Positions 12,564 through 62,007 are shown, numbered from the stretch's first letter. The stretch is DNA of 64,000 bases from a virus (IMGVR_UViG_3300043410_000565:92236-156235), one strand, 5' to 3'. Program-made: numbers and translations. Notes: generated from the sequence alone by a model not told the origin.

Positions 12564-12571
12564 TATTAGAT

Positions 12572-12594
12572 GAGGGGAAGAAATTCCCCTCGTT
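12572..12594 (+). terminator. Rho-independent terminator after the sheath gene (GAGGGGAA-GAAA-TTCCCCTC-GTTT)
   Basis: 8-bp GC-rich stem with a GAAA loop, then a T-rich tail. Confidence 0.6.
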
Positions 12595-12633
12595 TAAAAC
12601 GAATAAATAAAAGTAATAACAAGGAGATTTTAA

Positions 12634-13221
12634 ATGGCAAATATTGCTGACTTTAAAGCCCAGATGATCGGTGGTGGTGCACGTCCGAACCAATTCAGAG
12701 TTGAGTTGACATTCCCATCATTCGTTACACTAGGTGTTATTGCTGGTCAGAGAGCACAGTTCCTATGCCGTGCTGCTTCTTTACCTGCATCAACTATTGA
12801 AACAATTTCTATTCCGTATCGCGGTCGTCCAGTGAACTTCGCTGGTGAGCGTTCATTCCAGCCTTGGACTGTTTCGATCTACAACGATACAACTTTCAAC
12901 ATCCGTAATGCTCTTGAGCAATGGCAATCTGGTATTCAACAATACAATACAACTAACGGTCGTACTAACCCTACTGACTATCAAGTTGACTTGTCTGTTC
13001 ACCAACTTGACCGTAACGGTGCAACTATCAAATCGTACAAGTTTACTGACGCTTTCCCAACTAACATTGGCGCGATCACTCTTGACTACGAACAACAAAA
13101 CGCTATTGAACAGTTCGACGTTGAATTCGTTTACAACTTCTTCACTTCTAACGAAGGTGCTGGTGCTAACTTCGGTATTAACGTTGGTATCAATACTCCA
13201 ATTGGTACTTTCCCAGTTTAA
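12634..13221 (+). CDS. 19: Tail tube protein gp19
   Basis: GGGARPNQFRVELTFPSF matches T4 gp19 ARPNLFQVEI. Position after the sheath gene. RBS AAGGAG. Confidence 0.85.
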   Translation: MANIADFKAQMIGGGARPNQFRVELTFPSFVTLGVIAGQRAQFLCRAASLPASTIETISIPYRGRPVNFAGERSFQPWTVSIYNDTTFNIRNALEQWQSGIQQYNTTNGRTNPTDYQVDLSVHQLDRNGATIKSYKFTDAFPTNIGAITLDYEQQNAIEQFDVEFVYNFFTSNEGAGANFGINVGINTPIGTFPV

Positions 13222-13242
13222 TCTTAGAAGGATAAGTATATA

Positions 13243-36321: not shown

Positions 36322-36885
36322 ATGTTAGTACGCAAATTAACTGTATTAGATAAACAACGCATCATCCACAACTTAGTACAACTTCAAGGTGAAGACCGAA
36401 GATTAAGATTTGGTGCAATGTGTAATGATGATTACATCGTAAACTATGTTACAAAATCTTTCGAACAAGAATCCAAGTGGTTCGGTGTTGATCATATTGA
36501 TGGTCATCTTGTTGCTACTTGTCATGTAGCAATTTATAACGGTGAAGCAGAACTGGGTTGTTGTGTTGATGAAGACTTCCGTGGCGAAGGTTTAGCCCAA
36601 CAGATGTTCGATAGAGCCGTGACATGGTTACGCACTAAAGGCATAACAAACGTCTTTATGCATTGCCTAACTGAAAATGCTGCTATGCGTCATATCGCTC
36701 GAAAGAATGAGATGACCGTTGTTAGTGGTTACGGTGACACGGACGCCAACGTTGAAGTTGAACCCGCAACTCCAGCAACTTTCTTAGAAGATCAGTACAT
36801 GGACAGAATCGCAATGTATGACATGTATTATAAAAACAGCTATCGACTGTTTGACTTTTACTGGAATCGACAAACTCATACCTAA
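36322..36885 (+). CDS. GNAT-family acetyltransferase-like protein
   Basis: CHVAIYNGEAELGCCVDEDFRGEGLAQQMF resembles the GNAT motif A (R/Q-x-x-G-x-G/A). Confidence 0.5.
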   Translation: MLVRKLTVLDKQRIIHNLVQLQGEDRRLRFGAMCNDDYIVNYVTKSFEQESKWFGVDHIDGHLVATCHVAIYNGEAELGCCVDEDFRGEGLAQQMFDRAVTWLRTKGITNVFMHCLTENAAMRHIARKNEMTVVSGYGDTDANVEVEPATPATFLEDQYMDRIAMYDMYYKNSYRLFDFYWNRQTHT

Positions 36886-47144: not shown

Positions 47145-48518
47145 ATGAGTATTGATGCTGGCAGAAATGTAAAAGTTGTCGTATTAGAATCAAGCGAAGT
47201 AACACCTCGCCCAGATTTGGTTGGTACATGGTTGGATGAGAATCACTACCATACGTTGGTTGAGTCTGACATGGACTTGTACCTACCACCATCTTGCGCC
47301 ACTGATTTGTCTGATGTTAGTTGTAACAAAGAATGTGGTGGCTGTAAGTCTGCGTTGAACGAAAAGAACATCGTGTTCAAGTTCCGTAAGAACTACTTCA
47401 GTGATGAAATGGTTAAGTCTGCATACGAAGGTCTTCGCGATGCAGCTACTGAAACACAGAACCGTGGCACTGCCGCTGGTCCACGTGGTGAGAAGCTACA
47501 AGGTCGTGATTGGGTTACTGCATACCAATGGGACATCATTGATGCCTTCAAGAAGGGTGCTGGTAACTTACTCGGCGAAGACCCAATTGAAGTCATCCAA
47601 ACTAAATATGGCGAAAACCGTGACCAAGCGTCTAACCGTGCTCAAGTCTGGTTGCGCGACAGCGTTGACGAAGCTGGCTTCCATTTCGATGATTGGGTTG
47701 AAACTACTCGTCGTAAACCTGCAGCTGAAGCATCAGAAGATGCAGCTTGGGTTGAGAACAATCTAATCTCTAAGACTACTTACGCAAACCCAGTGAACTC
47801 TGGCATTGCTGGTTGGTATGATCGTTATCCACGTATCCCTTATGGTCGTGCTACATCTTACACTGAGAAGCAATTTGATAAGTTCAAGAAATCTTACCCA
47901 TACCTTCAGCATCTGTCTAAGGCATTCGCTGAATTGCTACCATGGCGTTATGGTAACCAGAAAGCTGCAGCTGATAAAGTTGATCAACGTTTCTTGGTTC
48001 CAAACACTCCATTCTCTACAATCACTGTTAACCGTAACTTCCGTACAGCTGCTCACTATGACCCAGCGAACATGGATGATGGCTTTGCTAACATTTGTGT
48101 ATTCAGTAACTCTGACTCTTATAGAGGTGCTTACCTTGTTTTCCCTGAAATTGGTTATGCTGTTAACATTCGTCCAGGTGACCTATTGTTTGTTAACAAT
48201 ATGGCTGGTCTACACGGCAATACTGAGTTGATCCTTGATGACCCTAATGCTGAGCGTATCTCTATCATTGCGTTCTTCCACGAAGGAATGTTGACTCTTG
48301 GTTCTATGGAGTATGAAAATGCTCGTCGTAAGTTTGTTGACCACTGCAAGAACGATGTGAACAACCCTCACTATCGTCCACGCTTCAACGGCGTGTATGC
48401 TGGTATGTGGGAAAGCCAAGAATGGTTTGACTTCTGTAAGAAAGAAGTTGGCGAAGCTGAAACAATTAAGATGCATCCAGAAGCTAACGCATCTTCACTT
48501 GATGAGTTCTTTGCCTAA
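47145..48518 (+). CDS. 2OG-Fe(II) dioxygenase (double-stranded beta-helix) with a Cys-rich N-terminal region, possibly TET/JBP-like
   Basis: HxD (AAHYD) ... H (GLHGNTE) ... RxS (ERISIIAFF) in a DSBH arrangement. N-terminal C..C...C..CGGC cluster. Confidence 0.6.
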   Translation: MSIDAGRNVKVVVLESSEVTPRPDLVGTWLDENHYHTLVESDMDLYLPPSCATDLSDVSCNKECGGCKSALNEKNIVFKFRKNYFSDEMVKSAYEGLRDAATETQNRGTAAGPRGEKLQGRDWVTAYQWDIIDAFKKGAGNLLGEDPIEVIQTKYGENRDQASNRAQVWLRDSVDEAGFHFDDWVETTRRKPAAEASEDAAWVENNLISKTTYANPVNSGIAGWYDRYPRIPYGRATSYTEKQFDKFKKSYPYLQHLSKAFAELLPWRYGNQKAAADKVDQRFLVPNTPFSTITVNRNFRTAAHYDPANMDDGFANICVFSNSDSYRGAYLVFPEIGYAVNIRPGDLLFVNNMAGLHGNTELILDDPNAERISIIAFFHEGMLTLGSMEYENARRKFVDHCKNDVNNPHYRPRFNGVYAGMWESQEWFDFCKKEVGEAETIKMHPEANASSLDEFFA

Positions 48519-49201
48519 TGTGTGCCGTAATTGGAGCCTTGATCAAAAGTCCTTCTAGCAAGGACTTCGAAGCCCTGAAGCGTGTGTTCGTCGAATCAAA
48601 GATTCGTGGTATGCATGCTACAGGCTTGGCTTACATTAAAGGTGGCGATGTTATCATTGATCGTAAACCTGTGCCAGCCGACCAGTTTCCATTCGACTTT
48701 CCTTCATATGTAAACGAGGATGGTAACTTATATCTAATCGGACACTGTCGTTATTCAACAAGTGATTTGGAGTTTAACCAACCTATTGGTAATGATGGTC
48801 ATGCTATTGTACACAATGGTGTTATCACTCAAGAGCTTCCAGAGAACTGGAAAGCCAAGTATGGTTATAACTGCCAAACCAGAAACGACAGCGAGTTGAT
48901 TCAACACTCTAATGACCCATTGGTTGAGTTTGATGATATGTCAATGGCTGTGTGTGAGATAACATCTTGTACAAAAGAACTTTTGGTTTATCGTAACGGT
49001 AAGCGACCATTATATTTGACTACTCTGTCAAATGGTAGTATAATTACTTCTACGGCTGATATTCCTAAACGTGCAGGTTTATACTTACCAACGATGGAAG
49101 TTCCAATGGATACATACATTACATTTGACTCAGCATTAACTATGAAACTACAACGTGTCATCACTGGACACAAGGATCTACAGAATGTACAACAAAAGTG
49201 A
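48518..49201 (+). CDS. Class-II (Ntn) glutamine amidotransferase
   Basis: N-terminal nucleophile MCAVIG, then GHCRYSTSD...NQP, HNGVITQ and DSELI motifs. Confidence 0.7.
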   Translation: MCAVIGALIKSPSSKDFEALKRVFVESKIRGMHATGLAYIKGGDVIIDRKPVPADQFPFDFPSYVNEDGNLYLIGHCRYSTSDLEFNQPIGNDGHAIVHNGVITQELPENWKAKYGYNCQTRNDSELIQHSNDPLVEFDDMSMAVCEITSCTKELLVYRNGKRPLYLTTLSNGSIITSTADIPKRAGLYLPTMEVPMDTYITFDSALTMKLQRVITGHKDLQNVQQK

Positions 49202-50057
49202 TTTTACATACGGTATGGAGATAGAGTGGGGAGATGTTCCCCGCTCTTTTTCAATTCCAGAGAACCTTGGTTCTTGGGAATACTCCGAGCGTGACATTAT
49301 CAATTTGCGTGCACCATATGCAAACGTGTGCGCTGACCCATTAGGTGTTGAACCGCCAATGGGTGGTGAGATTAACACTAAGCCAACTAGAACTTGGCAA
49401 GAACAAGTTGATCGTTACTTTGAACTGAAAGAGTTATTCAATGAACAAGGTCATGACCCAACTGTTGGTGTTACTGCTCACACCCATATTCATTGTCGGG
49501 TTCCACGCTTGCGTGATGATATTGATGCTTTGAAACGACTAACCAAGTACGTCAAAGAGAATCAAGCTGCAGCTATTGAACACGTCTATGGCTTCTTTGA
49601 GCATAACCAGATGAAGGGTGCCAAAGGTTCTAAGATGTATCTCAAGTTTGATGGTGGTCGCCCAATGCCTGATTACATGAGCGATAACATTATCAACCTA
49701 GCAACTGACTTTGATTCTTTCATCAAGATGCACGCTGCTGGTAAAGATGGAGTATCAATGGGTCGCCCATTCCGCTTTGCTATTAACATGTATGCGTTGA
49801 AACATATTGATACAGTTGAGTTCCGTTTGTTCCGTGGCACGTTAGATCGTACTGAATTGGAATCATGCTTCCGCTTTGTTGAAGACTTCCTTGACGCAGC
49901 TTTGAATGATGGTCCAAGCGTCAATGAACTTATCTCTGAAAGAGGTTACAAGTTCCCTCCAATGCAATGGGACTTGGCTCAGTTCATAGGCTGGGAGAAA
50001 ACTAAACACCCAGAAGAACGTGGTAAGAAAGTGAGAACATACGTTGAAGTTGAATAA
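49185..50057 (+). CDS. Amidoligase-like (glutamine-synthetase-fold, PF12224-like) protein. ATG 49185 is preferred.
   Basis: N-terminal GMEIEW (GxExE), GGEINT, HTHIHC and TVEFRLFRG are reminiscent of phage amidoligases. Always linked here to the GAT-II gene. Confidence 0.45.
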   Translation: MYNKSDFTYGMEIEWGDVPRSFSIPENLGSWEYSERDIINLRAPYANVCADPLGVEPPMGGEINTKPTRTWQEQVDRYFELKELFNEQGHDPTVGVTAHTHIHCRVPRLRDDIDALKRLTKYVKENQAAAIEHVYGFFEHNQMKGAKGSKMYLKFDGGRPMPDYMSDNIINLATDFDSFIKMHAAGKDGVSMGRPFRFAINMYALKHIDTVEFRLFRGTLDRTELESCFRFVEDFLDAALNDGPSVNELISERGYKFPPMQWDLAQFIGWEKTKHPEERGKKVRTYVEVE

Positions 50058-50595
50058 GTGTACTCGCGATCAGTTCATCAAAGCTATCTCTGATGACAAG
50101 GCTGACAAGTTTGCTAAGACTTTCGTGGCCAAAGCAGACATGCAGGATCAGTGGGATGATTGTATCGGTGCCTTCAATGAAGAAGGTGAACTGATGGCTG
50201 CTATCATCACCACTATTTCTAAGCGTAAACCTTTCGTTGCTAACCTACAACTCCTTCACACCTTTGCTAAACACAGAGGTCAGGGAGCAGCCAAAGCATT
50301 ATGTGAAGCATCCCTTCGTCATGTTAAAAGTAAGCAAGCGTTATACTTCCGTGTATCATCAGAACCAGAATCAGTTGGTTTCTATGAGAAGATTGGTTTC
50401 AAGTTCTGGGGTAAGCAAAAGTCTGGTTGCCAGTTGAGTATTTTCCGAATTGACGGTGATACCTTCTTCGAGGGAGACTACGACTATACAGACCAGATGA
50501 TCAACAATGCGATCCATAAGAAGGGTAAAGGTGGGTGTGTAGAGGTGTTTGACCTAGTTACGACCCAGCAACCCCTGACTCTAGAAGGGTTTTGA
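50044..50595 (+). CDS. GNAT-family acetyltransferase-like protein. The start is a non-ATG (TTG) and uncertain.
   Basis: Motif A-like HRGQGAAKALCEAS. 183-aa ORF. Confidence 0.5.
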   Translation: MKLNKCTRDQFIKAISDDKADKFAKTFVAKADMQDQWDDCIGAFNEEGELMAAIITTISKRKPFVANLQLLHTFAKHRGQGAAKALCEASLRHVKSKQALYFRVSSEPESVGFYEKIGFKFWGKQKSGCQLSIFRIDGDTFFEGDYDYTDQMINNAIHKKGKGGCVEVFDLVTTQQPLTLEGF

Positions 50596-50637
50596 GGGTA
50601 TTTACTTTTATTCAAGAATATAGTATAATATATCTAT
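50593..50637 (+). promoter_or_regulatory. Conserved early promoter P5 (GGTATTTACTTTTATTCAAGAATATAGTATAATATATCTAT)
   Basis: -35 TTTACT, 17-bp spacer, -10 TATAAT. The spacer TTTAATTCAGAAATAG of P4 appears here as TTTTATTCAAGAATATAG. Confidence 0.6.
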
Positions 50638-50656
50638 AACTTGAAAAGGATTTATT

Positions 50657-51958
50657 ATGACAGTTCCATATGCAGCGTTCGTTTACGGTTGGAGAAACAT
50701 TGAGAACGGCAAAATGTATATCGGATTCCGCAAGAGTTCGGAGATCTATGATGGATATGTAACATCATCCGCTGACGAAGAACTTCAAGCCGACTGGTCA
50801 TTCGGTATTCTCCACCGATCTATTCTTTTCCGTGGGACAGCTGAAGATGCTATCACCATGGAGCGCAAACTGCTCAAGCATATTGATGCTCGTCGCAATC
50901 CATTGTTCTATAATAAGTCGAACGGTGGAGGCGCAGGCATCCGCGATTACACTACAATCACTGATGAAGAAGCCAAAGTTGGTATTGATTGGATCAATGG
51001 TATTGACCCAATTGAAGTACACGATATGTACGACTTGGTTGATAACACCTTGGTTCTTGGAATCTTAGAAAGTATCAAAGCAGGAAAGTGGCAGCGTGTA
51101 GAGGTTCCAGTTAAGGAAATTGCGACTTATAAACAGAACCAAGTTCGATTGATGATGATTGATCACAATCACCGTAAAGAGATCGCAGCTTACATGATGG
51201 AAGACCCTGTCGAAGCCCGCAAACATATTTCTCCAATCATTGTGGTTGTTGATAATTATGGGGTTCGCTGGATTATTGACGGCAACCATACATCTGGTGC
51301 GGTTCAAGACGCAGGTTGGATCACTGCTCCCGTTATCTTTATCAACTCAAGTGAGTTCAATAACAAGCAGTCTAACATTGACCAGTTTGGTATCTTGGCG
51401 AACCACAACCCTAAAGTTAAGAAGGGTAACAAAGCAGAAGACTGCCAACGTGCTGTTATCAACTTGTATAATAACAACCTTGCTTCTTCTGATGATGGTG
51501 AACATACTATCTTCCGCAGTGAGAAGTTTAAGCAAACTTGCCTTGCTGTGTTTAAAGGTATTTGGACTAACAAGACAATCGTGTCTAACTTAGATAAAGC
51601 TATCAACCGTGTCCGCACAGAAAAGGCTATTGCTGATTTGAACTTTCAGTTGTACTCTAAGAAGGATCTTGACGCTATCGTTAAACCTATCCAACAAAGC
51701 AACCCCTCGTTGGCTGTTATTAGTGTAACTTCTGGTTCGGTATATAACTCTGGTATCGGTGGTATTCTTAATAAGATGGGTGGTCTTGATACTTGGGAAG
51801 GTGTTCTTGTGGTTCACCATAGTGGTATCAGTGAATATGAATCGTGGGCTGACTCTGAAACAAAATTGAAAGCAGCTATGAAGCGTGTTCACCCGAACTG
51901 TAAAATTAAATACGTCCTCTTGAATTCGTTCAAGAAACAAACTAAGATTAAGGTGTGA
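50657..51958 (+). CDS. GIY-YIG nuclease fused to a ParB/Srx-like domain, i.e. a Seg-like free-standing homing endonuclease candidate
   Basis: N-terminal FVYGWRNIENGKMYIGFRKSS (GIY-YIG) and central IIVVVDNYGVRWIIDGNHTSGAV (ParB-like DGxHR). RBS AAGGA. Confidence 0.6.
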   Translation: MTVPYAAFVYGWRNIENGKMYIGFRKSSEIYDGYVTSSADEELQADWSFGILHRSILFRGTAEDAITMERKLLKHIDARRNPLFYNKSNGGGAGIRDYTTITDEEAKVGIDWINGIDPIEVHDMYDLVDNTLVLGILESIKAGKWQRVEVPVKEIATYKQNQVRLMMIDHNHRKEIAAYMMEDPVEARKHISPIIVVVDNYGVRWIIDGNHTSGAVQDAGWITAPVIFINSSEFNNKQSNIDQFGILANHNPKVKKGNKAEDCQRAVINLYNNNLASSDDGEHTIFRSEKFKQTCLAVFKGIWTNKTIVSNLDKAINRVRTEKAIADLNFQLYSKKDLDAIVKPIQQSNPSLAVISVTSGSVYNSGIGGILNKMGGLDTWEGVLVVHHSGISEYESWADSETKLKAAMKRVHPNCKIKYVLLNSFKKQTKIKV

Positions 51959-52977
51959 TGGATTACAGACTAAAAGAAAACAGAAGAGAAGCCTTTATCC
52001 GCTGGTACGCATGGTCATTAAAATACGATGACTGTGACCCAGCGGTTTGGGCTACGAACTATCTACACAATCGCTATGAACATAATGACGAAGAACGAAT
52101 TTGGTTTGCGTGGTTATATGGTAACACATATCAACTACCAACTGCTTGGGTTCTTAAGAATGAGTTCCCTGACTTTGAACTAGCCACAGTTGACCGTATC
52201 ACTCAATGGAATACTGCTAACTACAAACGTCTACGATATCAAACTGACACGAAGTGGAACAAAGGTCACTTACCTGCCATGTTTGAGTCATATCAAAACT
52301 TTATTGGAAACAGGACACAACGTGAAACACTCGAATCGTACTACGTCGGTAATGCTATGGAAAACTTTGATGCTCTGTGGAGCGTTCTTAAATCAAGGCT
52401 TCATAAGTTTGGTCGTTATTCTACTTGGTTCTATATGCAGCATCTTAAGCACACTGCTGGTATTAACATTGAGCCTAGTTCTCTTATGTTGGATGATTAT
52501 GATGGTTCCCGTTCTCATCGTAATGGATTACTTTTTGCCGCTGGGCGTGATGACGATGTTGATCGAAAACTCACTGGAAGCGAGTATGCAGACCTTGAAA
52601 GATTTGGCGAGGGAATCAGGGTTGAAATGCTAGACAGGTTCCCTGAACTTGCAGATCAGATTGACTTCTTCACTATGGAAACCTGCCTATGTTCTTTCAA
52701 GAAAATCTTTAGAGCAAAGCACGGTCGTTATCTTGGTTATTACTTAGACCGTCAAGCTGAAGAGATTATCAAAGCTGAAGGTGATGGATGGTATGGTATT
52801 GATTGGGACGTTATGTGGCAATCAAGAAACGAAACTATTGACCTTCGCTTAGATCACAAGAATGGTATCATCAAAGAAAAGTTTACTTATTTCCTGAACT
52901 CAGGTAAAATAGATAACTTAGAGTGGATGTTTGACGATGAAGAAAAACCCTTAATGGGATTGGAGAATTTTATATGA
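51958..52977 (+). CDS. Hypothetical protein (340 aa)
   Basis: ORF with a TGATG junction. Trp/Tyr-rich. Confidence 0.5.
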   Translation: MDYRLKENRREAFIRWYAWSLKYDDCDPAVWATNYLHNRYEHNDEERIWFAWLYGNTYQLPTAWVLKNEFPDFELATVDRITQWNTANYKRLRYQTDTKWNKGHLPAMFESYQNFIGNRTQRETLESYYVGNAMENFDALWSVLKSRLHKFGRYSTWFYMQHLKHTAGINIEPSSLMLDDYDGSRSHRNGLLFAAGRDDDVDRKLTGSEYADLERFGEGIRVEMLDRFPELADQIDFFTMETCLCSFKKIFRAKHGRYLGYYLDRQAEEIIKAEGDGWYGIDWDVMWQSRNETIDLRLDHKNGIIKEKFTYFLNSGKIDNLEWMFDDEEKPLMGLENFI

Positions 52978-53399
52978 ACCCAGATGATGTATTGGACATA
53001 GATATTAGCGGCTTGAGGATTAATGCTGGTAGTATCAGCGGACTAACCCCAGCGCCGATATTACCAAACAGTTGGAGTGCGTCTAATGTTACAGCTGCTG
53101 CAACTCCGCTGCCAAAGATTACACGCACGGTAGATGAGATTATGGATGAACATAGCCTCAACCGTATCGCTGTTGACCATAAGGTAACTGCTCAAGAATT
53201 ACTGAAGCTGCAGGAAGTTGCCCCTGATTATGCTTCTGAGATTAAAGAGAACATCGCTAAGAACTTAGCACGTGATATTGCTAAGAAGGTTATGTTCAAA
53301 AAGAAACACGACAAAGATGCTGACGTTCATCACTTCATTGGTCGTGTTTGGGTATTCACTGATGAAGAATTGAAAGAGCTACTACAAAATGTTCATTGA
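52974..53399 (+). CDS. Hypothetical protein
   Basis: 141-aa ORF with an ATGA overlap. Confidence 0.45.
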   Translation: MNPDDVLDIDISGLRINAGSISGLTPAPILPNSWSASNVTAAATPLPKITRTVDEIMDEHSLNRIAVDHKVTAQELLKLQEVAPDYASEIKENIAKNLARDIAKKVMFKKKHDKDADVHHFIGRVWVFTDEELKELLQNVH

Positions 53400-53994
53400 A
53401 AAAATTAAAGCCAATGATGAGATTAATATTCAACTCATCCGCAACGAGAAGAAAGTCCGTAAGCTGATTGCCGTTGGTGGTAGTCCAGGGACTGGTAAGA
53501 CCACATTGTTCCGTAAGTATATGGAAAGTAAAGTATTCCAACCAGTTGAGCCAGCCAAGCTAGTTTCAGCCATGTATAATACTGAGCGTGACCTATACAT
53601 TCTTGGTAAGTATGAAGAAGGTGAAGTGTTCGCTGGCACTGACCGTCTTTCTATGGCAGTTCAGCCAGCTATGCAGGAATGGATTGCTTCCCATAACTGT
53701 AACGTCTTGTTTGAGGGTGACCGAATCTTCAACCAGTCTTTCCTAGAATTCGCTATGGGTCTGCCCGATACCGAGCTTCATATCGTATTCCTGAACGCAC
53801 CTAAGACCGTATTAGAACAACGATACCAAGACCGTGGCTCCGACCAGTCTGAACAATTCCTAAGAGGTCGAGAAACTAAATATAGTAATCTGTTATCGAA
53901 CTTTGACTTGATGCCTTATATTACTGAGTTTGCGAATACTAACTTAGAGGAACAAGCGAAAGTCTTAGCCTTCCTAGAGGGTAAATTAGGATAA
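53389..53994 (+). CDS. P-loop nucleotide/nucleic-acid kinase
   Basis: Walker A VGGSPGTGKTTL and a Walker B-like LFEGD. 201 aa. Confidence 0.6.
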   Translation: MFIEKIKANDEINIQLIRNEKKVRKLIAVGGSPGTGKTTLFRKYMESKVFQPVEPAKLVSAMYNTERDLYILGKYEEGEVFAGTDRLSMAVQPAMQEWIASHNCNVLFEGDRIFNQSFLEFAMGLPDTELHIVFLNAPKTVLEQRYQDRGSDQSEQFLRGRETKYSNLLSNFDLMPYITEFANTNLEEQAKVLAFLEGKLG

Positions 53995-54019
53995 GGATTA
54001 GGCTTTCTAGGAGGTCATT

Positions 54020-54721
54020 ATGCGTTTCCTAGAACAATCCGACTTTAACTGGATGGAGTTACTCAACTTCTATGAGCCTCCATTTAGAGCTAAACTCAAC
54101 CCATCAAAAATTTGGAGAGACCTAGACGAGTATGAAAATGACTCAGTCGGTCTCTCCAACTACTTTAAGAAGTGGAGAACTAAAGTAGAGTTCAGAGAAC
54201 CAATGCGCAAGTCATGGCGCAAAAGTGTTGCTGTGGGTGGTGAGTATGCCCCAGATGAACGCCAATGCTGCATACAAATATACGCAGTAAACTTTGACAA
54301 ACATGAGTTCACTATGCAGACTTGGAACCGATTCAAGTACCGTGTTATTCAAACCCTTATGCATGAGATGATCCACTTCATGCAGTACGACCGTCGCTAC
54401 GACGAGTCAAGTAATTATGTCCTACCACACAAGAAGGTTGGTCATTCACTCAAAGATGCCGAGCGTGCATACTTATCTGAGTTCGATGAGATTCAAGCAT
54501 ACGCTCACTGTGTATATCTAGACCTGAAGGTTAATCACCCATCTAGAGAAGTTTCTGAATTCTTATCCATGCCAAAACTTAAAACTAGATGTCCATCTAG
54601 CACTCTTAAGTATATCCTAAAAACTTTCAACTACGACAGTAGGAATAACAAAGCCATTCATAAGCTGTTCCAGCAGATAATGAAGTGGGATAGAAAGTAT
54701 AAACTAAATAGTCAGTATTAG
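54020..54721 (+). CDS. SprT-like / HExxH zinc metallopeptidase-like protein
   Basis: TLMHEMIHFMQYD (HExxH). RBS GGAGG. Confidence 0.5.
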   Translation: MRFLEQSDFNWMELLNFYEPPFRAKLNPSKIWRDLDEYENDSVGLSNYFKKWRTKVEFREPMRKSWRKSVAVGGEYAPDERQCCIQIYAVNFDKHEFTMQTWNRFKYRVIQTLMHEMIHFMQYDRRYDESSNYVLPHKKVGHSLKDAERAYLSEFDEIQAYAHCVYLDLKVNHPSREVSEFLSMPKLKTRCPSSTLKYILKTFNYDSRNNKAIHKLFQQIMKWDRKYKLNSQY

Positions 54722-56068: not shown

Positions 56069-57244
56069 ATGCTAAACTTCCTAGACTTCCTTAAAGAATC
56101 AGCCGACGATGGCGCTAAACTAAAGCACATCCACCACGCTGAAGATCGCCCATTCCTACACGGTTCAGAGGGTTTCGAACACGCTGAAGGTGCGCTAAAG
56201 CAAGCCCATGACGATATGAAGTCTGGTCACACTAGCAATAACCTTACAGAGAAGTTCGACGGTTCTCCATCTATCGTATTTGGCCACCACCCTACCACTA
56301 AGAAGTTCTTCGTTGCTTCTAAGTCGGCGTTCAACAAGAACCCTAAAATCAATTACACACCTGAAGATATTGACAAGAACCACGGGCATGCTCCTGGTCT
56401 AGCGTCTAAGCTAAAAGACTCTTTGGCTAATCTTAAAAAGGTTGCACCAAAGAAAGGTGTTTACCAAGGCGACTTGATGCATACTTCTGAAGACCATCAG
56501 GTTCATCCAGATGGTTCTGTATCGTTTACTCCAAACACTATCACGTATACAGCCCACGGTAAAGAAGCGGAGAAGGTTAAGCGTTCAAAGGTTGGTGTTG
56601 TGGTTCATACAAAATATGAAGGCAAGTCTTTAGATGATATGAAGGCTACCCCAAATGTAAGCGATGAAGAGTTTAAGCAACACCCAGACGTTCACCTTCA
56701 TACTGCTAACTTCGACACGAAGAAGGTAAACTATCCACCAGAAGCTCAGAAGAAGTTTGAAGAACACATGCACAAAGCACGTGATATTCATATGAAGAAC
56801 CCAGATATGTACAAACATATCGCACGTCACGGTGGCGACGGTGGCCATCTAGCAACTTATATCAACCAAACAGTTCGTGACGGTTCTAAACCAAATACAG
56901 AAGACTTTAAGAAGCACGTAATGGATAAGTACCAGAAGATGGCTGATAAGGTTAAGACTGATAAATCTAAAGAAGAAAAGATTGGTCAAGGTGAAGGTCA
57001 ATTAGCTCATATCGACGCTCACAAAGAGCACTATGATGCAGCGTTTAAAATGCACCAGCACCTACAATCTGCTAAAAATACATTAGTCAACTCGCTTGAA
57101 TCTTCTAAGGGTGGTTACGATTATCACATTAACGGTGAAGAATCTAAACCAGAAGGCTATGTTGTTAATCACAAAGGCGAACCAACTAAGTTAGTAAACC
57201 GTGCTGAGTTTGCTCGTCAGAACTTATTAAAGGTGCGCAAGTAA
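56069..57244 (+). CDS. RNA ligase 1-like (RnlA family) nucleotidyltransferase, His-rich
   Basis: Motif I LTEKFDGSP (T4 Rnl1 LTKEDGSL), motif IV KPEGYVVNHKG (T4 Rnl1 EGYVAVMKDG) and a lysine-rich motif V. Confidence 0.6.
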   Translation: MLNFLDFLKESADDGAKLKHIHHAEDRPFLHGSEGFEHAEGALKQAHDDMKSGHTSNNLTEKFDGSPSIVFGHHPTTKKFFVASKSAFNKNPKINYTPEDIDKNHGHAPGLASKLKDSLANLKKVAPKKGVYQGDLMHTSEDHQVHPDGSVSFTPNTITYTAHGKEAEKVKRSKVGVVVHTKYEGKSLDDMKATPNVSDEEFKQHPDVHLHTANFDTKKVNYPPEAQKKFEEHMHKARDIHMKNPDMYKHIARHGGDGGHLATYINQTVRDGSKPNTEDFKKHVMDKYQKMADKVKTDKSKEEKIGQGEGQLAHIDAHKEHYDAAFKMHQHLQSAKNTLVNSLESSKGGYDYHINGEESKPEGYVVNHKGEPTKLVNRAEFARQNLLKVRK

Positions 57245-57855
57245 TGTTTAACTTTACAAATTACTTAAGAGAACAAGCTAACCAACGTCATGGTGTTTTG
57301 GCGTTTGGTCGTATGAACCCTCCAACTGTTGGTCATGAGAAGCTAGTTGATAAAGTTCACCAGATCGCAGATAAGCATGACGCTATTCACGCTGTTGTTC
57401 TTTCTCATAGCCAAGACGCTAAGAAGAACCCATTAGATGTAGCCACTAAAGTTAAGCACGCTAAGAAAGCATTCCCAAATACTAATATCGTTGGTGCCTC
57501 TAAAGAGCAGCCAACTATTATGCATCACGCTTCAGCTATGTACGCTGCTGGTGCTCGTCACCTTCACGTTGTAGCTGGTTCTGATCGTGAAGAAGAATAC
57601 AAGAAACTACTGAGCACATATAATGGTAAAGAAGGAAAGCACGGTTACTATAACTTCAAGTCTATCACTATTCATTCTGCAGGTCATCGTGACCCAGACG
57701 CTGAAGGTGCTGAAGGTATGTCTGCTTCGAAGATGAGAGAACATGCTGCCGCTGGTAATCAGAAAGAGTTTCATTCTGGTCTACCCAGCCATATGTCTGA
57801 GAAAGATAAAGCTGCTGTTTATCACGACGTCAGAAAAGGTATGGGTCACGAATGA
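57244..57855 (+). CDS. NMNAT-like / cytidylyltransferase-fold nucleotidyltransferase
   Basis: HxGH motif FGRMNPPTVGHEKLV. 203 aa. Paralogous to the N-terminus of the 59321 gene. Confidence 0.6.
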   Translation: MFNFTNYLREQANQRHGVLAFGRMNPPTVGHEKLVDKVHQIADKHDAIHAVVLSHSQDAKKNPLDVATKVKHAKKAFPNTNIVGASKEQPTIMHHASAMYAAGARHLHVVAGSDREEEYKKLLSTYNGKEGKHGYYNFKSITIHSAGHRDPDAEGAEGMSASKMREHAAAGNQKEFHSGLPSHMSEKDKAAVYHDVRKGMGHE

Positions 57856-58013
57856 AATCGTTTAAAGAGTTCGTAAAAGAACATATCGAAAAAGTCAAGG
57901 GTGGTTATGAAGTTGAGAGTGAACACGGTAATAAGAATCTAGGTAAGTCACCTACAAAGGCAGGGGCTTTGAAACGTCTTCGCCAAATCGAATACTTCAA
58001 GCATAAAGGATAA
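57852..58013 (+). CDS. Small Lys-rich ORF (53 aa) not in the ORF track
   Basis: ATGA overlap with the upstream gene. Sequence MKSFKEFVKEHIEKVKGGYEVESEHGNKN... Confidence 0.35.
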   Translation: MKSFKEFVKEHIEKVKGGYEVESEHGNKNLGKSPTKAGALKRLRQIEYFKHKG

Positions 58014-58016
58014 CCC

Positions 58017-59282
58017 ATGTCACAAGAACAAGACTATTTCGTAAATGTAGTAAATAGTGTACCTACTCAGTACGCAGACTCAGCACAATTAACTTCATTC
58101 TCTAGACTTCGCACTGCAGAATCTCGTCTACTTGGCGATTACCGTTACATGTACGGTTCTGGCACAAGTATTATGATGAATGATCTATTGGCCAATGGTG
58201 GAACATTAACTCCAGAGTTTGATAAGTGTCAAGTCCTTGCGTCTGTCACTGCTGCTTCTGGTAGTAAAGCTGTACGACAAACTAAAAAGTATCACCCATA
58301 CACTTCTGGTACATCAACCATGAGCTTCATGACTTTCTGCATGAATCCAGCTAAAGCTAATTTGGTTCAATCAGTGGGTTGTTTTGATGAGTTGAACGGT
58401 ATTTTCTTTAGAATGAATGGCACAACTCCTGAGATTGTTATCCGTAAAGGTGGCGTTGATAATGAAGTTATCCCTCAATCTCAATGGAATCAAGATACTT
58501 TAACTGAACTTGACTTCAGCAAGGTTTTGATTCTTACTATGGACTATCAGTGGCTCGGTGTTGGTCGTGTTCGTGTTGGTTTCGTTCACGATGGCGTTGT
58601 ACGTTACGCTCATTACTTCTCGCACGACAACCTTACAACTGAAGTTTATATGTACCAACCGAGTTTACCATTCCGTTGGGAAATTTATAATACTGCAGCT
58701 ACATCTGGCTCAAGTACGCTGAAGATAATCTGCGCATCAGTATTCGTTGAAGGTACTTTCTCTCCGAACAGCTACACTAAGTCAGTCAGCACTGGCCAGT
58801 CAGCAGTGGCTGTTTCAAACGCTCAAGGTACAACTGGCGTTGCTGTTTTGGCTGTTCGCTTAATGAATAGTCTACAGGGTAAGCAAAATAGATCTCATGA
58901 TATGCTAAAGGCAATGTCTTTATTTGCCACTAACGATGCACACTACAAGTTAGTTGTATTGCAAGACACAAGTAAATTCTTGTCTGCACCTACTTGGACT
59001 GCAGTCCCAGGATATGGTTGGAGTGAATATGCTACTGGTATAAACATGGCTTCTGGTTGGGCTACAGATAATAATTTCGTTGTATTAAAGGACGGTTTTA
59101 TCACAGGTTCAGGTAGTGGTATTGGCGCTACGCCAACTGTTTCACTTGATGATAATACCCTGAACTCAATCTTCCAAAACTATGATAGTACAGGTAGTCA
59201 AATCTTCGCAGTTATTGTAGATCGCCTTGGAACAAACAATACTGATATTAGAGCTAGTTTAGATTGGCTGGAAGTTAAATAA
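58017..59282 (+). CDS. Hypothetical beta-rich protein (421 aa)
   Basis: ORF with Ser/Thr/Gly-rich composition. No clear catalytic motif. Confidence 0.5.
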   Translation: MSQEQDYFVNVVNSVPTQYADSAQLTSFSRLRTAESRLLGDYRYMYGSGTSIMMNDLLANGGTLTPEFDKCQVLASVTAASGSKAVRQTKKYHPYTSGTSTMSFMTFCMNPAKANLVQSVGCFDELNGIFFRMNGTTPEIVIRKGGVDNEVIPQSQWNQDTLTELDFSKVLILTMDYQWLGVGRVRVGFVHDGVVRYAHYFSHDNLTTEVYMYQPSLPFRWEIYNTAATSGSSTLKIICASVFVEGTFSPNSYTKSVSTGQSAVAVSNAQGTTGVAVLAVRLMNSLQGKQNRSHDMLKAMSLFATNDAHYKLVVLQDTSKFLSAPTWTAVPGYGWSEYATGINMASGWATDNNFVVLKDGFITGSGSGIGATPTVSLDDNTLNSIFQNYDSTGSQIFAVIVDRLGTNNTDIRASLDWLEVK

Positions 59283-59320
59283 AGCTAAATAATACTGTTA
59301 CTATTATACTGATGGATTAA

Positions 59321-61567
59321 ATGAAGAACTATAAAGAACTACTAAGCGAACTGCCATCCAAGACCGTTGTTTTTACATGCGGTAAATTCAATCCCCCGAA
59401 CGTGGGTCATGAACTTGAGATCAAGGTAGTCCGTAAGTTAGCGAGTCAGCGCAAAGCTGATCACTTCATTTTTGTATCCTCGATACAAGACGCTAAAAAG
59501 AATCCATTAGAAATTAGTAAAAAGATGCAGTATTTGGGAAGCCTATTTCCAAATACAAAATTCGTACATAAAGAGATAGATGCTATCGGCACTATCCTTA
59601 AGAAGTACAAAAGTGTCACTTTAGTTACTCCAGCTGATAGTGTGGAATACTATAAGAAGGCACTGAAGAAAGTTGGTATTACTGACGTTGAGATTGTTAA
59701 GGCTGGCGATACTTGCCCCGACGAAGATGATAAGCTAGTGAAGCTGGCATCTAAGGGTGACTATACATCGTTCAAGAATAATCTACCAACGACAGTTAGA
59801 GATTTAGACGGTAAGCGTCTAATGAATGATATTAGAATTGGTATGAACCTTGATCCGATCAAGGAACAAATTAATCTAGTTAAAGACGATCTACGTGAAC
59901 AGTATTTCCGTGGTGAACTTTTTAACGAAGGTGATATCGTCGAAAGCGATAACACCGTTTATAAAATTATCAAACGTGGCTCTAATCATTTGCTGTTACA
60001 GAATGAGTCTGGTTTAAAAGTGAGTAAGTGGATTCAAGACGTACAATTAACAGAAAGAGAATTTATGTTAGACGAAAAATTAATTCAAGAAGCTGATGCA
60101 GCAGTTGCAACTGGGTTAGCTGGTGGCAACAAAGAAGCTAAGAAGGCTCAAGCTGATACAGCTAAGATGAAACTTGCTCTTGATCAAGCCAAAGAAAAAG
60201 AAGACCTAGCCAAGCAACAAGAGCGTGAGCGCACTAATCTTAAGAACATGGCTGAAGGTGCAGATTCTCCTGTTGTTGATACTTCCAAGAAGTATAACAT
60301 CGCTAAATCTATCATGAGCCTAAGTGACTTCCGCAAGTCAACTGGTCAAATGACTAAAGATGAAACTGAAATTGCAGACAAAGTAAAAGACGGTCTAGTT
60401 GGTAACGCACATATGGGTGATAACCACGGTCTACGCCATATGAAGGTTAAGCACCATCTTGGTGAAGCCAGTGCTGCAGCAAAGCTACAAAAAGCGTTTC
60501 AACGTGAACAAGATAAGATTGCTTCTGAACGTAAAGCTGGTGAACAATTATTAAACCCAAAACCAACAGTTCCAACTAAGCCAGTTGCTGAAGGTAACGG
60601 TTACGATGATAACCGTACTGGTTTCGCTAAGAAGCCTCGTGAAGACGACGAGTACCATAACGAACCAAAACCAAAGTTCAAAGCTAGATCTACTATGGAT
60701 CGCCCACATACTGTCCACATTGATGGTAAGCCATGGAAGAGATTCGACAACGGTCACCAAGCCCACGCTGCTGCAAAAACTCTACAAGCTAAAGGCAAAA
60801 AGGCAACTGCTATCGCTCACTTCAAAGAAGAAACTGATGAGCAACAAGCCACACGTAACGCTCAACTAAAGCGTTTCAAAGACCAAGCTAAAGATTCTAA
60901 ACTAACTGAAGCTCAATACGCTGGTTTAGAAAAAGAAAGCAAGCCAGGAAAGGTTAAGACTGCTATCGTTAAGACTCACCCTAAAGCTGTAGAGTCTGAA
61001 ACTGTAGAAGGTTGGGAAGACGAAAAGAAGCCAGTCAAAGAAGAATTCGACGAGATCAATGATGACGAGTTTTTCCAACAAGTACAAGCCGACATGGATG
61101 CTTTAACTGAAGAAGATTTCTACGAAGCGTATGATGATGAAGAACTTGCAATCATTGACGAAGATACTGGCGAAGAAATCGAAGCTGTAGACTCTGTAAC
61201 TGAAGAGGCTTTGATGGAAGTTCTATCTCGCATCGAACGTATCCGTGCAAAGGCTCGTATGCGTCGTAGCCAAACTAAACGTCAACGCAGAGAGAAAGTT
61301 GCTCTACGTCAACTATCAACTCCTCAAGTAGCAAACAAGAGAGCTCGCCGCATGGCTATCTCTGCTATGAAGAAACGTCTACTGAAGGGTCGTAACCCGC
61401 AGAAAGTTTCTGTTGGCGAAAAGGAACGTGTAGAACGTTTCATCGCTCAACGAAGAAAAGTTGTTGACCGTCTATCAGCTCGTATGGTTTCTCGTGTTAA
61501 GCAAGTTGAAAAGGCACGCATGTCTCACAAGAAATTCACTAAACCTAATAATGGAGTAGCATTTTGA
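59321..61567 (+). CDS. Large protein with an N-terminal NMNAT-like nucleotidyltransferase domain and a roughly 500-aa highly charged disordered C-terminus
   Basis: HxGH motif CGKFNPPNVGHELEI, then low-complexity K/E/A/R-rich sequence ending in a basic RRSQTKRQRR segment. Confidence 0.6.
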   Translation: MKNYKELLSELPSKTVVFTCGKFNPPNVGHELEIKVVRKLASQRKADHFIFVSSIQDAKKNPLEISKKMQYLGSLFPNTKFVHKEIDAIGTILKKYKSVTLVTPADSVEYYKKALKKVGITDVEIVKAGDTCPDEDDKLVKLASKGDYTSFKNNLPTTVRDLDGKRLMNDIRIGMNLDPIKEQINLVKDDLREQYFRGELFNEGDIVESDNTVYKIIKRGSNHLLLQNESGLKVSKWIQDVQLTEREFMLDEKLIQEADAAVATGLAGGNKEAKKAQADTAKMKLALDQAKEKEDLAKQQERERTNLKNMAEGADSPVVDTSKKYNIAKSIMSLSDFRKSTGQMTKDETEIADKVKDGLVGNAHMGDNHGLRHMKVKHHLGEASAAAKLQKAFQREQDKIASERKAGEQLLNPKPTVPTKPVAEGNGYDDNRTGFAKKPREDDEYHNEPKPKFKARSTMDRPHTVHIDGKPWKRFDNGHQAHAAAKTLQAKGKKATAIAHFKEETDEQQATRNAQLKRFKDQAKDSKLTEAQYAGLEKESKPGKVKTAIVKTHPKAVESETVEGWEDEKKPVKEEFDEINDDEFFQQVQADMDALTEEDFYEAYDDEELAIIDEDTGEEIEAVDSVTEEALMEVLSRIERIRAKARMRRSQTKRQRREKVALRQLSTPQVANKRARRMAISAMKKRLLKGRNPQKVSVGEKERVERFIAQRRKVVDRLSARMVSRVKQVEKARMSHKKFTKPNNGVAF

Positions 61568-62007
61568 TGGAAGAACTAACAGCCTCTTTACATATTGCTC
61601 TTGCTAATACATTCGTTATGTATTTCAAGGCTCACTCTTACCACTGGAATATTGAAGGGAAAGACTTCCCTCAATACCATGGTTTCCTAGATGAACTGTA
61701 TAACGATCTACACGATGCTGTAGATCCCACTGCAGAACGTATTCGTGTTATCGGTCAATATTCTCCACATAGTCTGAAAGACCTTCTAGAGTCTGCAACT
61801 ATTGAGGAAGACGAAGATAAACCAGATACTCCAGAAGCTATGTTTACAAACCTTTTAGATGCAAACTCTAAAGTGATTGATAGCCTAAATAAAGTATTCG
61901 AGTTAGCTACGTCAGCTAAGAAGCAAGGTATTGCAGATTTCGCAGCTGGTCGTTTAGACGCTCATGATAAACACGGTTGGTTCTTAAAATCAATCTTAAA
62001 GGGTTAA
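61567..62007 (+). CDS. Dps / ferritin-like DNA-binding protein
   Basis: LHIALANTFVMYFKAHSYHWNIEGKDFPQYHGFLDELY matches the Dps ferroxidase-centre signature. TGATG junction. Confidence 0.75.
   Translation: MEELTASLHIALANTFVMYFKAHSYHWNIEGKDFPQYHGFLDELYNDLHDAVDPTAERIRVIGQYSPHSLKDLLESATIEEDEDKPDTPEAMFTNLLDANSKVIDSLNKVFELATSAKKQGIADFAAGRLDAHDKHGWFLKSILKG

Follow-up and report, generated by a model that had tools for sequence, protein, structure and literature searches.

Positions 47145-54721 of a 64,000-nucleotide stretch of DNA (hereafter the window) from an uncultured T4-like phage most likely encode a cassette that oxidises thymine in the phage's own DNA and then adds a nitrogen-linked, amide-bearing side chain to it. 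The probability that this is a post-replicative thymidine hypermodification cassette operating by the full five-step scheme outlined here can be put at roughly 0.6. First, a TET/JBP-family dioxygenase would hydroxylate thymine in phage DNA to 5-hydroxymethyluracil (5hmU). Second, a P-loop kinase would, as suggested by homology, phosphorylate 5hmU to 5-phosphomethyl-U. Third, following the mechanism of its family, an amino-acid:DNA transferase (AADT, formerly aGPT-Pplase2) would attack C6 with its conserved Cys, expelling the phosphate and placing a nucleophile on the exocyclic methylene. Fourth, this nucleophile would be ammonia, obtained from glutamine by a stand-alone class-II glutamine amidotransferase (GAT) and yielding 5-aminomethyl-dU, with GAT and AADT behaving as a split amidotransferase of PurF-like logic. 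Fifth, and speculatively, a glutamine-synthetase (GS)-fold amidoligase would use ATP to ligate a carboxylic acid onto the amine (plausibly glutamate, the by-product of the GAT, as in the chemistry of PuuA, GmaS and PafA, which is a guess) and a GNAT would N-acylate the result, the acyl acceptor being likewise a guess. Thymine would end up carrying a bulky, amide-linked group, shielding phage DNA from host nucleases.

Gene order and modularity

The four forward-strand ORFs that a first-pass annotation had proposed after gp41 are all present where it placed them, and its assignments to TET/JBP dioxygenase, class-II GAT, amidoligase-like and GNAT families all hold. These genes overlap by 1, 17 and 14 nt, an arrangement compatible with translational coupling. 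Their synteny, seen in more than 100 IMG/VR contigs, is far beyond chance, and the order gp41-TET-GAT-amidoligase-GNAT-(insert)-AADT-(o141)-kinase-o233 is kept in about 90 IMG/VR contigs. Among 34 loci recruited through their AADT and having enough upstream DNA, TET and GAT were found in every one. What lies between GAT and AADT varies: a sole GNAT-like protein with the amidoligase absent (20 of 34), amidoligase plus GNAT as in the window (12 of 34), or a GT, an Amidoligase_2 protein and an LMW phosphatase (one or two loci). Since GAT is universal in this set and the intervening content is not, GAT belongs to the core of the cassette and the amidoligase is modular.

Two conserved genes of the cassette flank the kinase. 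A small ORF between AADT and kinase, o141 (52974-53399, forward strand; 141 aa), is found in about half of the cassettes with 35-82% identity across related loci, its C-terminal half being the conserved part, and gave no match in Pfam and PHROG searches. The last gene (54020-54721, forward strand) encodes a zincin-like protein with a conserved HExxH motif (H115, E116 and H119 are invariant); it follows the kinase in most loci, and 8 of 13 members have weak, sub-threshold SprT-like matches (best E 0.0088).

Predicted oxidation and activation of thymine

The first gene (47145-48518, forward strand), preceded by an AAGGAG ribosome-binding site 3' of the gp41 stop codon, encodes a 457-aa Fe(II)/2OG 5-methylpyrimidine dioxygenase (5mYOX) of the TET/JBP family. 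It matches Pfam Tet_JBP (PF12851) over residues 236-380 (E 4.4e-23, 81.7 bits for a cut-off of 34.9) and PHROG 24024 (E 4e-143). The first-pass annotation would have given up its reading for a prolyl hydroxylase or PhyH profile, and it is TET/JBP that came out. H304-x-D306, H357 and R371-x-S373 align with H1382/D1384, H1881 and R1896/S1898 of TET2, and the iron triad and 2OG-binding Arg among these residues (H304, D306, H357 and R371, with S373) are kept across 68 homologues. By contrast, the Cys-rich N-region to which that annotation had drawn attention proved not to be a family feature, C51, C60, C64 and C67 not being conserved among homologues; the protein carries an N-terminal extension of roughly 230 aa. 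No C5-methyltransferase, ThyA or ThyX motif was found in the 64-kb window, and a C5-methyltransferase or dUMP hydroxymethylase could be encoded elsewhere in the genome, beyond these 64 kb. The prediction that the enzyme converts thymine to 5hmU on DNA draws on its family, on the activities published for relatives from phages, on the lack of a C5-methyltransferase in the window and on the kinase and AADT encoded in the cassette.

The general idea of a nucleobase hypermodification distinct from hmC glucosylation was sound, but the two genes that are decisive for it lie further downstream and had been missed. The first (51958-52977, forward strand, starting at the ATG at 51958) encodes an AADT that matches Pfam ADDT (PF18724; E 1.1e-21, 78.1 bits for a cut-off of 26.2). 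Its nearest characterised relative is the serine-using ViI gp247, with whose orthologue in phage Ag3 it shares 29% identity along its full length (317 residues aligned, E 2e-30). The motif E242-T-C244 is invariant, and in the alignment with that orthologue C244 matches its conserved Cys, in keeping with the essential Cys and neighbouring Glu of the family (Cys247 in PaMx11 gp46; Lee et al., 2021, PMC8989533). The second (53389-53994, forward strand) encodes a putative 5hmU DNA kinase, a P-loop protein with a conserved Walker A motif (GGSPGTGKTT) that matches Pfam Ploopntkinase3 (PF18751; 36.3 bits for a cut-off of 27), gave no Pfam match to HMUDK_HMUD1 (PF18748) and is only 25% identical (E 2e-6) to PaMx11 gp49, which is named 5-HMUDK. 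The presence of AADT and P-loop kinase downstream is what places the cluster in the paradigm leading from 5hmU through 5-phosphomethyl-U to an adduct.

A proposed glutaminase partner for the AADT

The second gene (48518-49201, forward strand) encodes a 227-aa stand-alone class-II (Ntn) GAT domain that matches GATase_6 (37.6 bits for a cut-off of 27). The initiator Met is directly followed by a Cys in the window GAT, as it is in no fewer than 95% of the 71 distinct homologues compared, among which the motifs IRGmHATG, GHCRYSTSDL, HNGVI and NDsEL are conserved. By analogy with GlmS and PurF, GHCRYSTS, with its Arg, HNGVI and NDSEL are presumed to form the glutamine site. Stand-alone GAT-II-like proteins can be amidohydrolases as well, EgtC being an example.

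An idea of the acceptor of this GAT came from a survey of the 150 best representatives (50%-identity clusters) of AADT relatives, eight of which are fusions of 555-647 aa with an N-terminal GAT and a C-terminal AADT. Six of the eight begin with MCG[IV]xG. Across all eight, the GAT part shares 28-37% identity with the window GAT (best E 1.4e-35). Because these eight representatives fuse an orthologous GAT to AADT, the AADT is likely to be the acceptor (synthase) partner domain. Among the same 150 representatives, GAT was fused to AADT only, no GAT-amidoligase fusion being found. One of the GAT-AADT fusions is adjoined by an HMUDK_HMUD1 kinase and a thymidylate-synthase homologue, and kinase-AADT and TET-AADT fusions were found as well, which ties all the core genes to one pathway. 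In the phage group studied here, the GAT and AADT genes are never adjacent, the tailoring module lying between them. The window GAT is predicted, from these comparisons, to be the glutaminase partner of the AADT.

PurF, the glutamine PRPP amidotransferase, offers a precedent: in it, ammonia from an N-terminal Cys glutaminase domain takes the place of a phosphate-type leaving group on an activated carbon. The same N-to-C domain order is seen in the GAT-AADT fusions; what differs is that the acceptor domain would be an AADT working on a base within polymeric DNA and that in the window the two halves are separate polypeptides. The nucleophiles that AADTs accept at the exocyclic methylene are diverse, including mercaptoethanol and hydride (PMC8989533). 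The comparative evidence, notably the invariant co-occurrence of GAT and AADT and their natural fusions, points to GAT-derived ammonia rather than a free amino acid or polyamine as the nucleophile.

It is nevertheless conceivable, if unlikely, that the AADT appends a free amino acid, the carboxylate of which would be amidated by the amidoligase with ammonia from the GAT and the amine of which would be acetylated by the GNAT. The donor could, for example, be serine, attached by its hydroxyl as it is in ViI, or else glycine or glutamate, attached by the amine; the side chain would end up neutral, as an N-acetyl-aminoacyl-amide. This would fit with the characterised AADTs, which all use an amino acid or polyamine and none ammonia (PMC8989533), as well as with the kinship to ViI gp247. 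An O-linked amino acid would also provide exactly one carboxylate and one amine for two tailoring enzymes, and ammonia is usable by GS-fold enzymes. However, the commonest variant of the cassette has a GAT without amidoligase or any other ATP-dependent partner, the GAT is fused to AADT in eight protein clusters and to amidoligase in none, and the window AADT is nearer to the fused AADTs (37-45% identity) than to the ViI-type serine transferase (29%).

The putative tailoring module

The third gene (49185-50057, forward strand) belongs to this swappable module and encodes a 290-aa GS-fold carboxylate-amine ligase, a divergent Amidoligase_2. It scores below threshold with the PF12224 profile (14.4 bits for a cut-off of 22, E 0.035), none of its more than 500 homologues has a precomputed Pfam domain and a comparison with PDB sequences gave no match. 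The assignment comes from a GS/GCL fold together with a homology bridge to bona fide Amidoligase_2 members. The protein has invariant acidic, His and Arg residues and is better conserved than the DNA polymerase of the phage among the contigs recovered. It is predicted, on sequence grounds, to catalyse ATP-dependent ligation of a carboxylate to an amine. It differs from PuuA, GmaS and PafA (the Pup ligase) in having only 290 aa, and it shares no more than 15% identity with any protein of solved structure.

The fourth gene (50044-50595, forward strand) encodes a GNAT N-acyltransferase that matches Acetyltransf_10 (E 5.8e-12, 46.2 bits for a cut-off of 23.6) and Acetyltransf_1 (E 5.8e-8, 33.5 bits for a cut-off of 20.7). 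It is homologous to the 221-aa GNAT-like protein of the cassette variant C and weakly similar to PaMx11 gp48, the 5-NmdU acetyltransferase (E 1e-4), this likeness being confined to the generic motif A region.

The first-pass annotation had paired GAT with amidoligase and let them amidate oxidised 5-methylpyrimidines, the TET enzyme oxidising iteratively to 5-carboxy-U (or 5caC) and the pair producing a 5-carbamoyl-pyrimidine independently of AADT and kinase. Phage 5mYOX enzymes support iterative oxidation in vitro (PMC13229309), and in Vibrio phage 2.275.O a distant homologue of the amidoligase has 7-deazaguanine genes and an Ntn aminohydrolase as neighbours, another setting in which a base carboxylate is turned into an amide. 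Several features make this route highly improbable in the window. The invariant kinase and AADT require 5hmU rather than 5caU, the GAT does not co-vary with the amidoligase and has AADT as its fusion partner, and in most relatives amidoligase and GNAT are replaced by a lone GNAT-like protein, which would make no sense for a carboxylate substrate. The other possibility raised, that the GAT/amidoligase/GNAT trio tags a protein, peptidoglycan or a metabolite and merely neighbours a DNA pathway, is scarcely credible since, although many phages with neither TET nor AADT have a pair of GAT and Amidoligase_2, for which a part in cell-wall modification or metabolite synthesis has been suggested (in work citing Iyer et al., 2009), the trio sits in overlapping reading frames between TET and AADT, its GAT is invariant with AADT and elsewhere fused to it, and three alternative modules share this one slot inside the DNA pathway.

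An optional inserted gene

Downstream of the GNAT gene lies a putative promoter-like element found by consensus scan (TTTACT-17-TATAAT, 50601-50629, forward strand), followed by ORF5 (50657-51958, forward strand). ORF5 has three parts, namely a domain like a GIY-YIG nuclease at its N-terminus, then a ParB/Noc-type N-terminal domain (CTP-binding fold) and lastly an alpha/beta domain at its C-terminus, an architecture of which no description was found in the literature. The catalytic Tyr/Tyr/Glu/Asn set of the GIY-YIG domain is complete and invariant (Y10, Y21, E69 and N86), and an equivalent of I-TevI R27 is not obvious. The ParB/Noc domain has a QxR box and G-N-H-T in place of the GERR box. 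The free-standing GIY-YIG homing endonucleases of T4-like phages, such as the Seg proteins and I-TevI, differ from ORF5, whose DNA-binding part is of the ParB/Noc type plus alpha/beta.

Compared with a relative (L007) whose TET is 94% identical and whose cassette has no ORF5-type gene, the 1.3 kb of ORF5 make up a clean indel separating the -10-like box from the ATG of the AADT gene. The promoter-like element is kept in L007, where it abuts that ATG, and in relatives without ORF5 it stands directly before the AADT gene. ORF5 is therefore most likely a mobile, homing-endonuclease-like element without which the pathway can do.

A functional role, either as the ParB-type activator on which clade-C1 T-dioxygenases depend when dsDNA is the substrate or as a nuclease directed against unmodified host DNA, by analogy with the GIY-YIG EndoII of T4, appears rather doubtful. 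ParB homologues are found together with 27% of 5mYOX contigs, and they activate their cognate enzymes (O'Toole et al., 2026, PMC13229309); the QxR box of ORF5 and the occupation of this slot by a family member in roughly 40% of related cassettes would agree with such a role. The ParB-dependent subclass is defined by a ParB NBD and CTD alone, consistently beside the dioxygenase, and ORF5 falls outside it because of the extra GIY-YIG domain, the clean indel and the divergence of its alleles, which are merely 25-30% identical in near-identical cassettes. The altered GERR box also speaks against a functional role.

Comparison with characterised systems

The association of these genes has already been reported (Lee et al., 2021, PMC8989533; O'Toole et al., 2026, PMC13229309), and phage clade-C 5mYOX have been described as T-dioxygenases that are associated with GATases, with P-loop kinases and with AADTs (PMC13229309). 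The same gene set is seen in sequences 22-25 of Fig. 2 in Lee et al. (2021) and in the clade C1 neighbourhoods of O'Toole et al. (2026): a Tet_JBP protein replacing dUMP hydroxymethylase, a P-loop kinase, an AADT, a GATase and an amidoligase, with no adjoining C5-methyltransferase. In those reports, GATase and amidoligase are listed without an assigned function and the final base is not known. The cassette differs from these clusters by the N-terminal extension of its dioxygenase and by a ParB-domain gene that is a GIY-YIG fusion and dispensable among close relatives.

Salmonella phage ViI (Ackermannviridae), in which the gp247 serine:DNA transferase leads to 5-NeOmdU, has the closest characterised AADT, with an aligned catalytic Cys; its pathway employs a dUMP hydroxymethylase, serine and a PLP decarboxylase, without TET, GAT, amidoligase or GNAT (PMC8989533, Table 1). 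PaMx11, in which 5-NmdU and its acetylation are known (PMC8989533), resembles the cassette in combining a kinase (gp49, 5-HMUDK), an AADT (gp46) and an acetyltransferase (gp48) and in passing through 5-aminomethyl-dU, which is then N-acylated to 5-acetylaminomethyl-dU. In PaMx11, however, 5hmdU is made before replication, and 5-NmdU arises by addition of glycine and cut-back by a flavoenzyme, the FAD lyase gp47. The cassette has no FAD enzyme, and direct amination by GAT-derived ammonia is proposed instead; the window AADT gave no detectable profile match to gp46.

Implications

Thymine hypermodification as an anti-restriction strategy is of a known kind, but the steps ascribed here to the GAT, the amidoligase and the acetyltransferase are as yet uncharacterised. 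We tentatively suggest, as a possibility rather than an expectation, that a split PurF-like GAT/AADT acting on polymeric DNA produces 5-aminomethyl-dU in one step, that a GS-fold ligase adds an amide (e.g. gamma-glutamyl) and that a GNAT caps it. If true, this would be a hypermodified thymine of a kind not yet described, and in the cassette an amidotransferase and a GS-fold ligase would, for the first time, be shown to work on bases of DNA.

Organization of the cassette

Downstream of the genes for gp43 polymerase, thioredoxin, UvsX and gp41 helicase lie four + strand genes that overlap by 1, 17 and 14 nt, the first being preceded by a strong AAGGAG ribosome-binding site. This first gene (window 47145-48518) encodes a TET/JBP dioxygenase, hereafter TET (Pfam PF12851, E 4.4e-23), in which H304-x-D306, H357 and R371-x-S373 line up with the residues that bind iron and 2OG in human TET2. 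It is followed by genes for a stand-alone class-II glutamine amidotransferase (GAT, 48518-49201) with Cys2 and the conserved glutaminase motifs, a GS-fold amidoligase (49185-50057) and a GNAT (50044-50595). The first-pass annotation had recognized these four genes and is confirmed at these coordinates, except that the 'Cys-rich' N-region it singled out in TET is a stretch that is not conserved among homologues. A second, unrelated GNAT acetyltransferase is encoded amid replication genes at 36322-36885 (Acetyltransf_1, E 5.7e-10).

The cassette extends past this cluster, with a 61-nt gap and then five further genes, the first of which is ORF5 (discussed below). The amino-acid:DNA transferase (AADT) that follows on the + strand (true start ATG 51958; Pfam ADDT, E 1.1e-21) is 29% identical (E 2e-30) to the orthologue of the ViI serine:DNA transferase in Ackermannviridae, and its invariant E242-T-C244 corresponds to the essential Glu/Cys of the AADT family. 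A small 141-aa ORF (52974-53399), which overlaps AADT by 4 nt and the kinase gene by 11 nt, occurs in roughly half of the cassettes; conservation is confined to its C-terminal half (GRvWvFt..El), the N-terminal half being variable, and it has no match to any known family. The P-loop kinase encoded between this ORF and the last gene has a Ploopntkinase3 match and is 25% identical to PaMx11 gp49 (E 2e-6). A conserved 233-aa HExxH protein (54020-54721) with invariant H115, E116 and H119 ends the cassette, and 8 of 13 homologues have weak SprT-like matches (best E 0.0088).

Sequence and profile searches of the PDB gave no match for the amidoligase, AADT or GAT, nor did a PDB search with ORF5 as a single sequence. 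No match was obtained by hhalign between the AADT profile and PaMx11 gp46, hence no residues could be mapped onto 8Z2M. AF2 models were built from shallow alignments (26-29 sequences). No C5-methyltransferase, ThyA or ThyX motifs were found in the 64-kb window, the part of the genome covered by this computational analysis.

On the 3' side of the cassette, the stretch 56069-62007 codes for a DUF6267 protein (E 1.8e-97), a ferritin/Dps-like protein (61564-62007) and two cytidylyltransferase-like proteins, one at 57244-57855 and the other forming the N-terminus of 59321-61567. In many contigs, synteny with the cassette extends to DUF6267 and the first of these nucleotidyltransferases. TET is by far the least conserved gene of the cassette, with a median identity of 47% versus 75-83% for its neighbours, and in three compared loci (L036, L037 and L104) it is down to 52-55% identical to the window despite 91-95% identity for the amidoligase, GNAT and AADT. 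This pattern points to a swapping of alleles or to a fast-evolving dioxygenase.

A probable mobile element in the cassette

ORF5 (50657-51958, + strand) has three parts, a GIY-YIG nuclease-like domain at the N-terminus, a CTP-binding-fold domain of the ParB/Noc N-terminal type and a C-terminal alpha/beta domain. Relative to L007, an IMG/VR contig with a 94% identical TET, it is a clean 1.3-kb insertion, located between the AADT start codon and a conserved promoter-like TTTACT-17-TATAAT element (the promoter and terminator scan as a whole being at chance level). In other near-identical cassettes, the slot is either empty or filled with alleles only 25-30% identical, and because of this and the clean insertion ORF5 is best read as mobile and homing-endonuclease-like. 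The reading is of consequence, since some phage T-dioxygenases require a ParB-like activator (O'Toole et al. 2026, PMC13229309). With ORF5 cleanly absent from the L007 cassette, the idea of an obligatory activator of this kind was rejected; judged from these comparisons, ORF5 does not behave as a partner that TET must have and co-evolves with, although it could still activate it.

Core and modular genes

TET and GAT are both present in all 34 loci that were recruited with AADT and have enough upstream DNA. The slot between GAT and AADT is filled in 20 of them by a lone GNAT-like protein of 221-240 aa, the commonest variant, in 12 by an amidoligase and a GNAT as in the window, and in one or two by a glycosyltransferase-like protein, an Amidoligase_2 and a low-molecular-weight phosphatase. 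In these loci, GAT is thus invariant together with TET, AADT and the kinase, and the amidoligase is modular. That GAT and amidoligase, the combination on which the first-pass annotation had built its proposal, form an obligatory pair was rejected on the basis of the loci that retain GAT without an amidoligase. The median identity of the amidoligase (83% versus 71.5% for the polymerase) is biased upward because the loci were partly recruited with amidoligase peptide patterns (about 90 IMG/VR loci, on T4-like phage contigs, were retrieved via TET or amidoligase patterns).

Further insertions (a 2OG oxygenase, a B12/radical-SAM enzyme and HNH proteins) are variably present. A 498-aa B12-binding radical-SAM protein lies between AADT and the small ORF in some cassettes, and a 198-aa 2OG-Fe(II)_Oxy_5 protein between TET and GAT in others (loci L068, at 12009-13505, L074, L139, L143 and L147 carry one of these insertions); both are candidate additional tailoring enzymes. 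A distant amidoligase homologue (27% identity, E 3e-10) in Vibrio phage 2.275.O (L106, MG592671, 5866-10126) adjoins 7-deazaguanine genes for a QueF-like reductase, a 'queuosine biosynthesis protein', an Ntn 'nucleophile aminohydrolase' and GTP cyclohydrolase I. The pairing of an amidoligase with an Ntn-hydrolase therefore recurs in another type of DNA-base modification cluster.

Gene fusions offer a second view of these partnerships. When AADT relatives were sought in 1.84 billion protein clusters, the 150 best representatives included eight GAT-AADT fusions, with GAT (MCGIVG-type N-terminus) preceding AADT, and their GAT and AADT domains are respectively 28-37% and 37-45% identical to those of the window. 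The same 150 include four AADT-kinase, one or two TET-AADT and one LMW-phosphatase-AADT fusions, and none with an amidoligase or GNAT. One GAT-AADT fusion has an HMUDK_HMUD1 kinase and a homologue of thymidylate synthase as neighbours, and the annotation shows no further hypermodification candidate in its vicinity.

A predicted pathway

The association of TET_JBP, kinase, AADT, GATase and amidoligase genes has already been published for metaviromes (PMC8989533; PMC13229309) and T-dioxygenase activity has been demonstrated for relatives (PMC13229309); the system is hence not new in kind, and the cassette is an uncharacterised variant of published thymidine hypermodification clusters. The clade-C 5mYOX enzymes of phages act post-replication, hydroxylating T within DNA (PMC13229309), 5-HMUDK phosphorylates 5hmU and AADT forms a Cys-C6 adduct, expelling the phosphate so that a nucleophile adds to the exocyclic methylene (PMC8989533). 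The first three steps here would follow this paradigm, from T to 5hmU (TET), 5-phosphomethyl-U (kinase) and an AADT adduct. We put the probability of thymidine hypermodification via 5hmU and 5-phosphomethyl-U at about 0.85.

What sets in afterwards is less certain. From the class-II amidotransferase architecture of the GAT-AADT fusions, we infer that the AADT nucleophile would be glutamine-derived ammonia supplied by GAT, a moderately probable role, and that the product would be 5-aminomethyl-dU. PaMx11 makes the same intermediate, but by a longer route. The amidoligase would then, most plausibly, ligate a carboxylic acid to the primary amine of 5-aminomethyl-dU, although its action on a DNA-borne amine is a tentative assignment, and GNAT would acylate the product; in the commonest variant, the lone GNAT-like protein would acylate 5-aminomethyl-dU itself. 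Glutamate is an attractive guess for the acid, since GAT releases it as a by-product and PuuA, GmaS and PafA provide an analogy. More speculatively, the HExxH protein could be a protease removing stalled covalent AADT-DNA (Cys-C6) adducts.

All characterised pathways begin with an amino acid or polyamine (PMC8989533). A route in which AADT adds an amino acid, with amidation and acetylation occurring later, is nevertheless unlikely, being hard to square with GAT-AADT fusions and with the retention of GAT where the amidoligase is missing. The same two observations weigh against the earlier proposal that GAT and amidoligase amidate 5caU or 5caC, which is now quite improbable. That the GAT/amidoligase/GNAT trio has a non-DNA target is the least credible alternative. 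The monoisotopic masses calculated for the candidate nucleosides are 257.101 for 5-aminomethyl-dU (5-NmdU), 299.112 for 5-AcNmdU, 386.144 for gamma-Glu-aminomethyl-dU, 428.154 for the N-acetylated form of the latter and 271.080 for 5-carbamoyl-dU; N-acetyl-O-serinamide-methyl-dU, a product of the serine route, has the same mass as its isomer gamma-Glu-aminomethyl-dU (386.144).

Relatives in cultured phages

The full cassette was found in no cultured phage of the collection searched, where the amidoligase is absent save for two distant matches, and none of 50,697 phage records was matched in a Megablast search with the first four genes. Three T4-like phages, DLP6, Cr30 and C48C1, have TET homologues (40-43% identity). 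Caulobacter phage Cr30 (L002) has TET (42%), AADT (ADDT, E 1e-52) and the kinase (39%) and lacks GAT, amidoligase and GNAT; it also encodes a weak TET-associated glycosyltransferase-like protein and an inositol-1-phosphate synthase. In phage C48C1 (L003), TET is followed by a UDP-galactopyranose mutase. From their gene content, the end chemistries of these two phages look different and sugar-based; in both, TET wrongly bears the annotation 'SNF2 DNA repair protein'. For Stenotrophomonas phage DLP6 (L001, TET 43%), the published description includes a test of its DNA against 18 restriction enzymes, with inhibitor controls, and its ambiguous wording seems to say that digestion failed (PMC5349666). 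The kinase matches several hundred mycobacteriophage genomes (304 records), where it is annotated as adenylate kinase or small terminase, and AADT matches 27, close to the left genome end (e.g. Fortunato and BirdsNest; KX589269 1765-2775, MN813686 1476-1940). These mycobacteriophages are candidates for so far unreported thymidine hypermodification.

Implications

The literature searched proposes no function for GAT, the amidoligase or GNAT. The GAT-AADT Rosetta stone makes the role of GAT and amidoligase, an explicit question since 2021, directly testable, and the comparative data turn it into concrete questions. Is GAT plus AADT a glutamine-dependent 5-aminomethyl-dU synthase? Does a GS-fold ligase acylate DNA? 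Hypermodification pathways are a source of enzymes writing new chemistry onto DNA polymers and, if the proposed scheme is true, two enzyme classes would be added to those known to act on DNA nucleobases, together with a new base. Because the T-dioxygenase starts on ordinary DNA, enzymatic tools for DNA labelling at thymine would also follow. Hypermodified thymidine protects the DNA of phages against restriction and against nucleases of other kinds. The T4-like phages to which the cassette belongs are an uncultured but abundant group, with at least 588 AADT-clade stretches retrieved from IMG/VR via AADT patterns.
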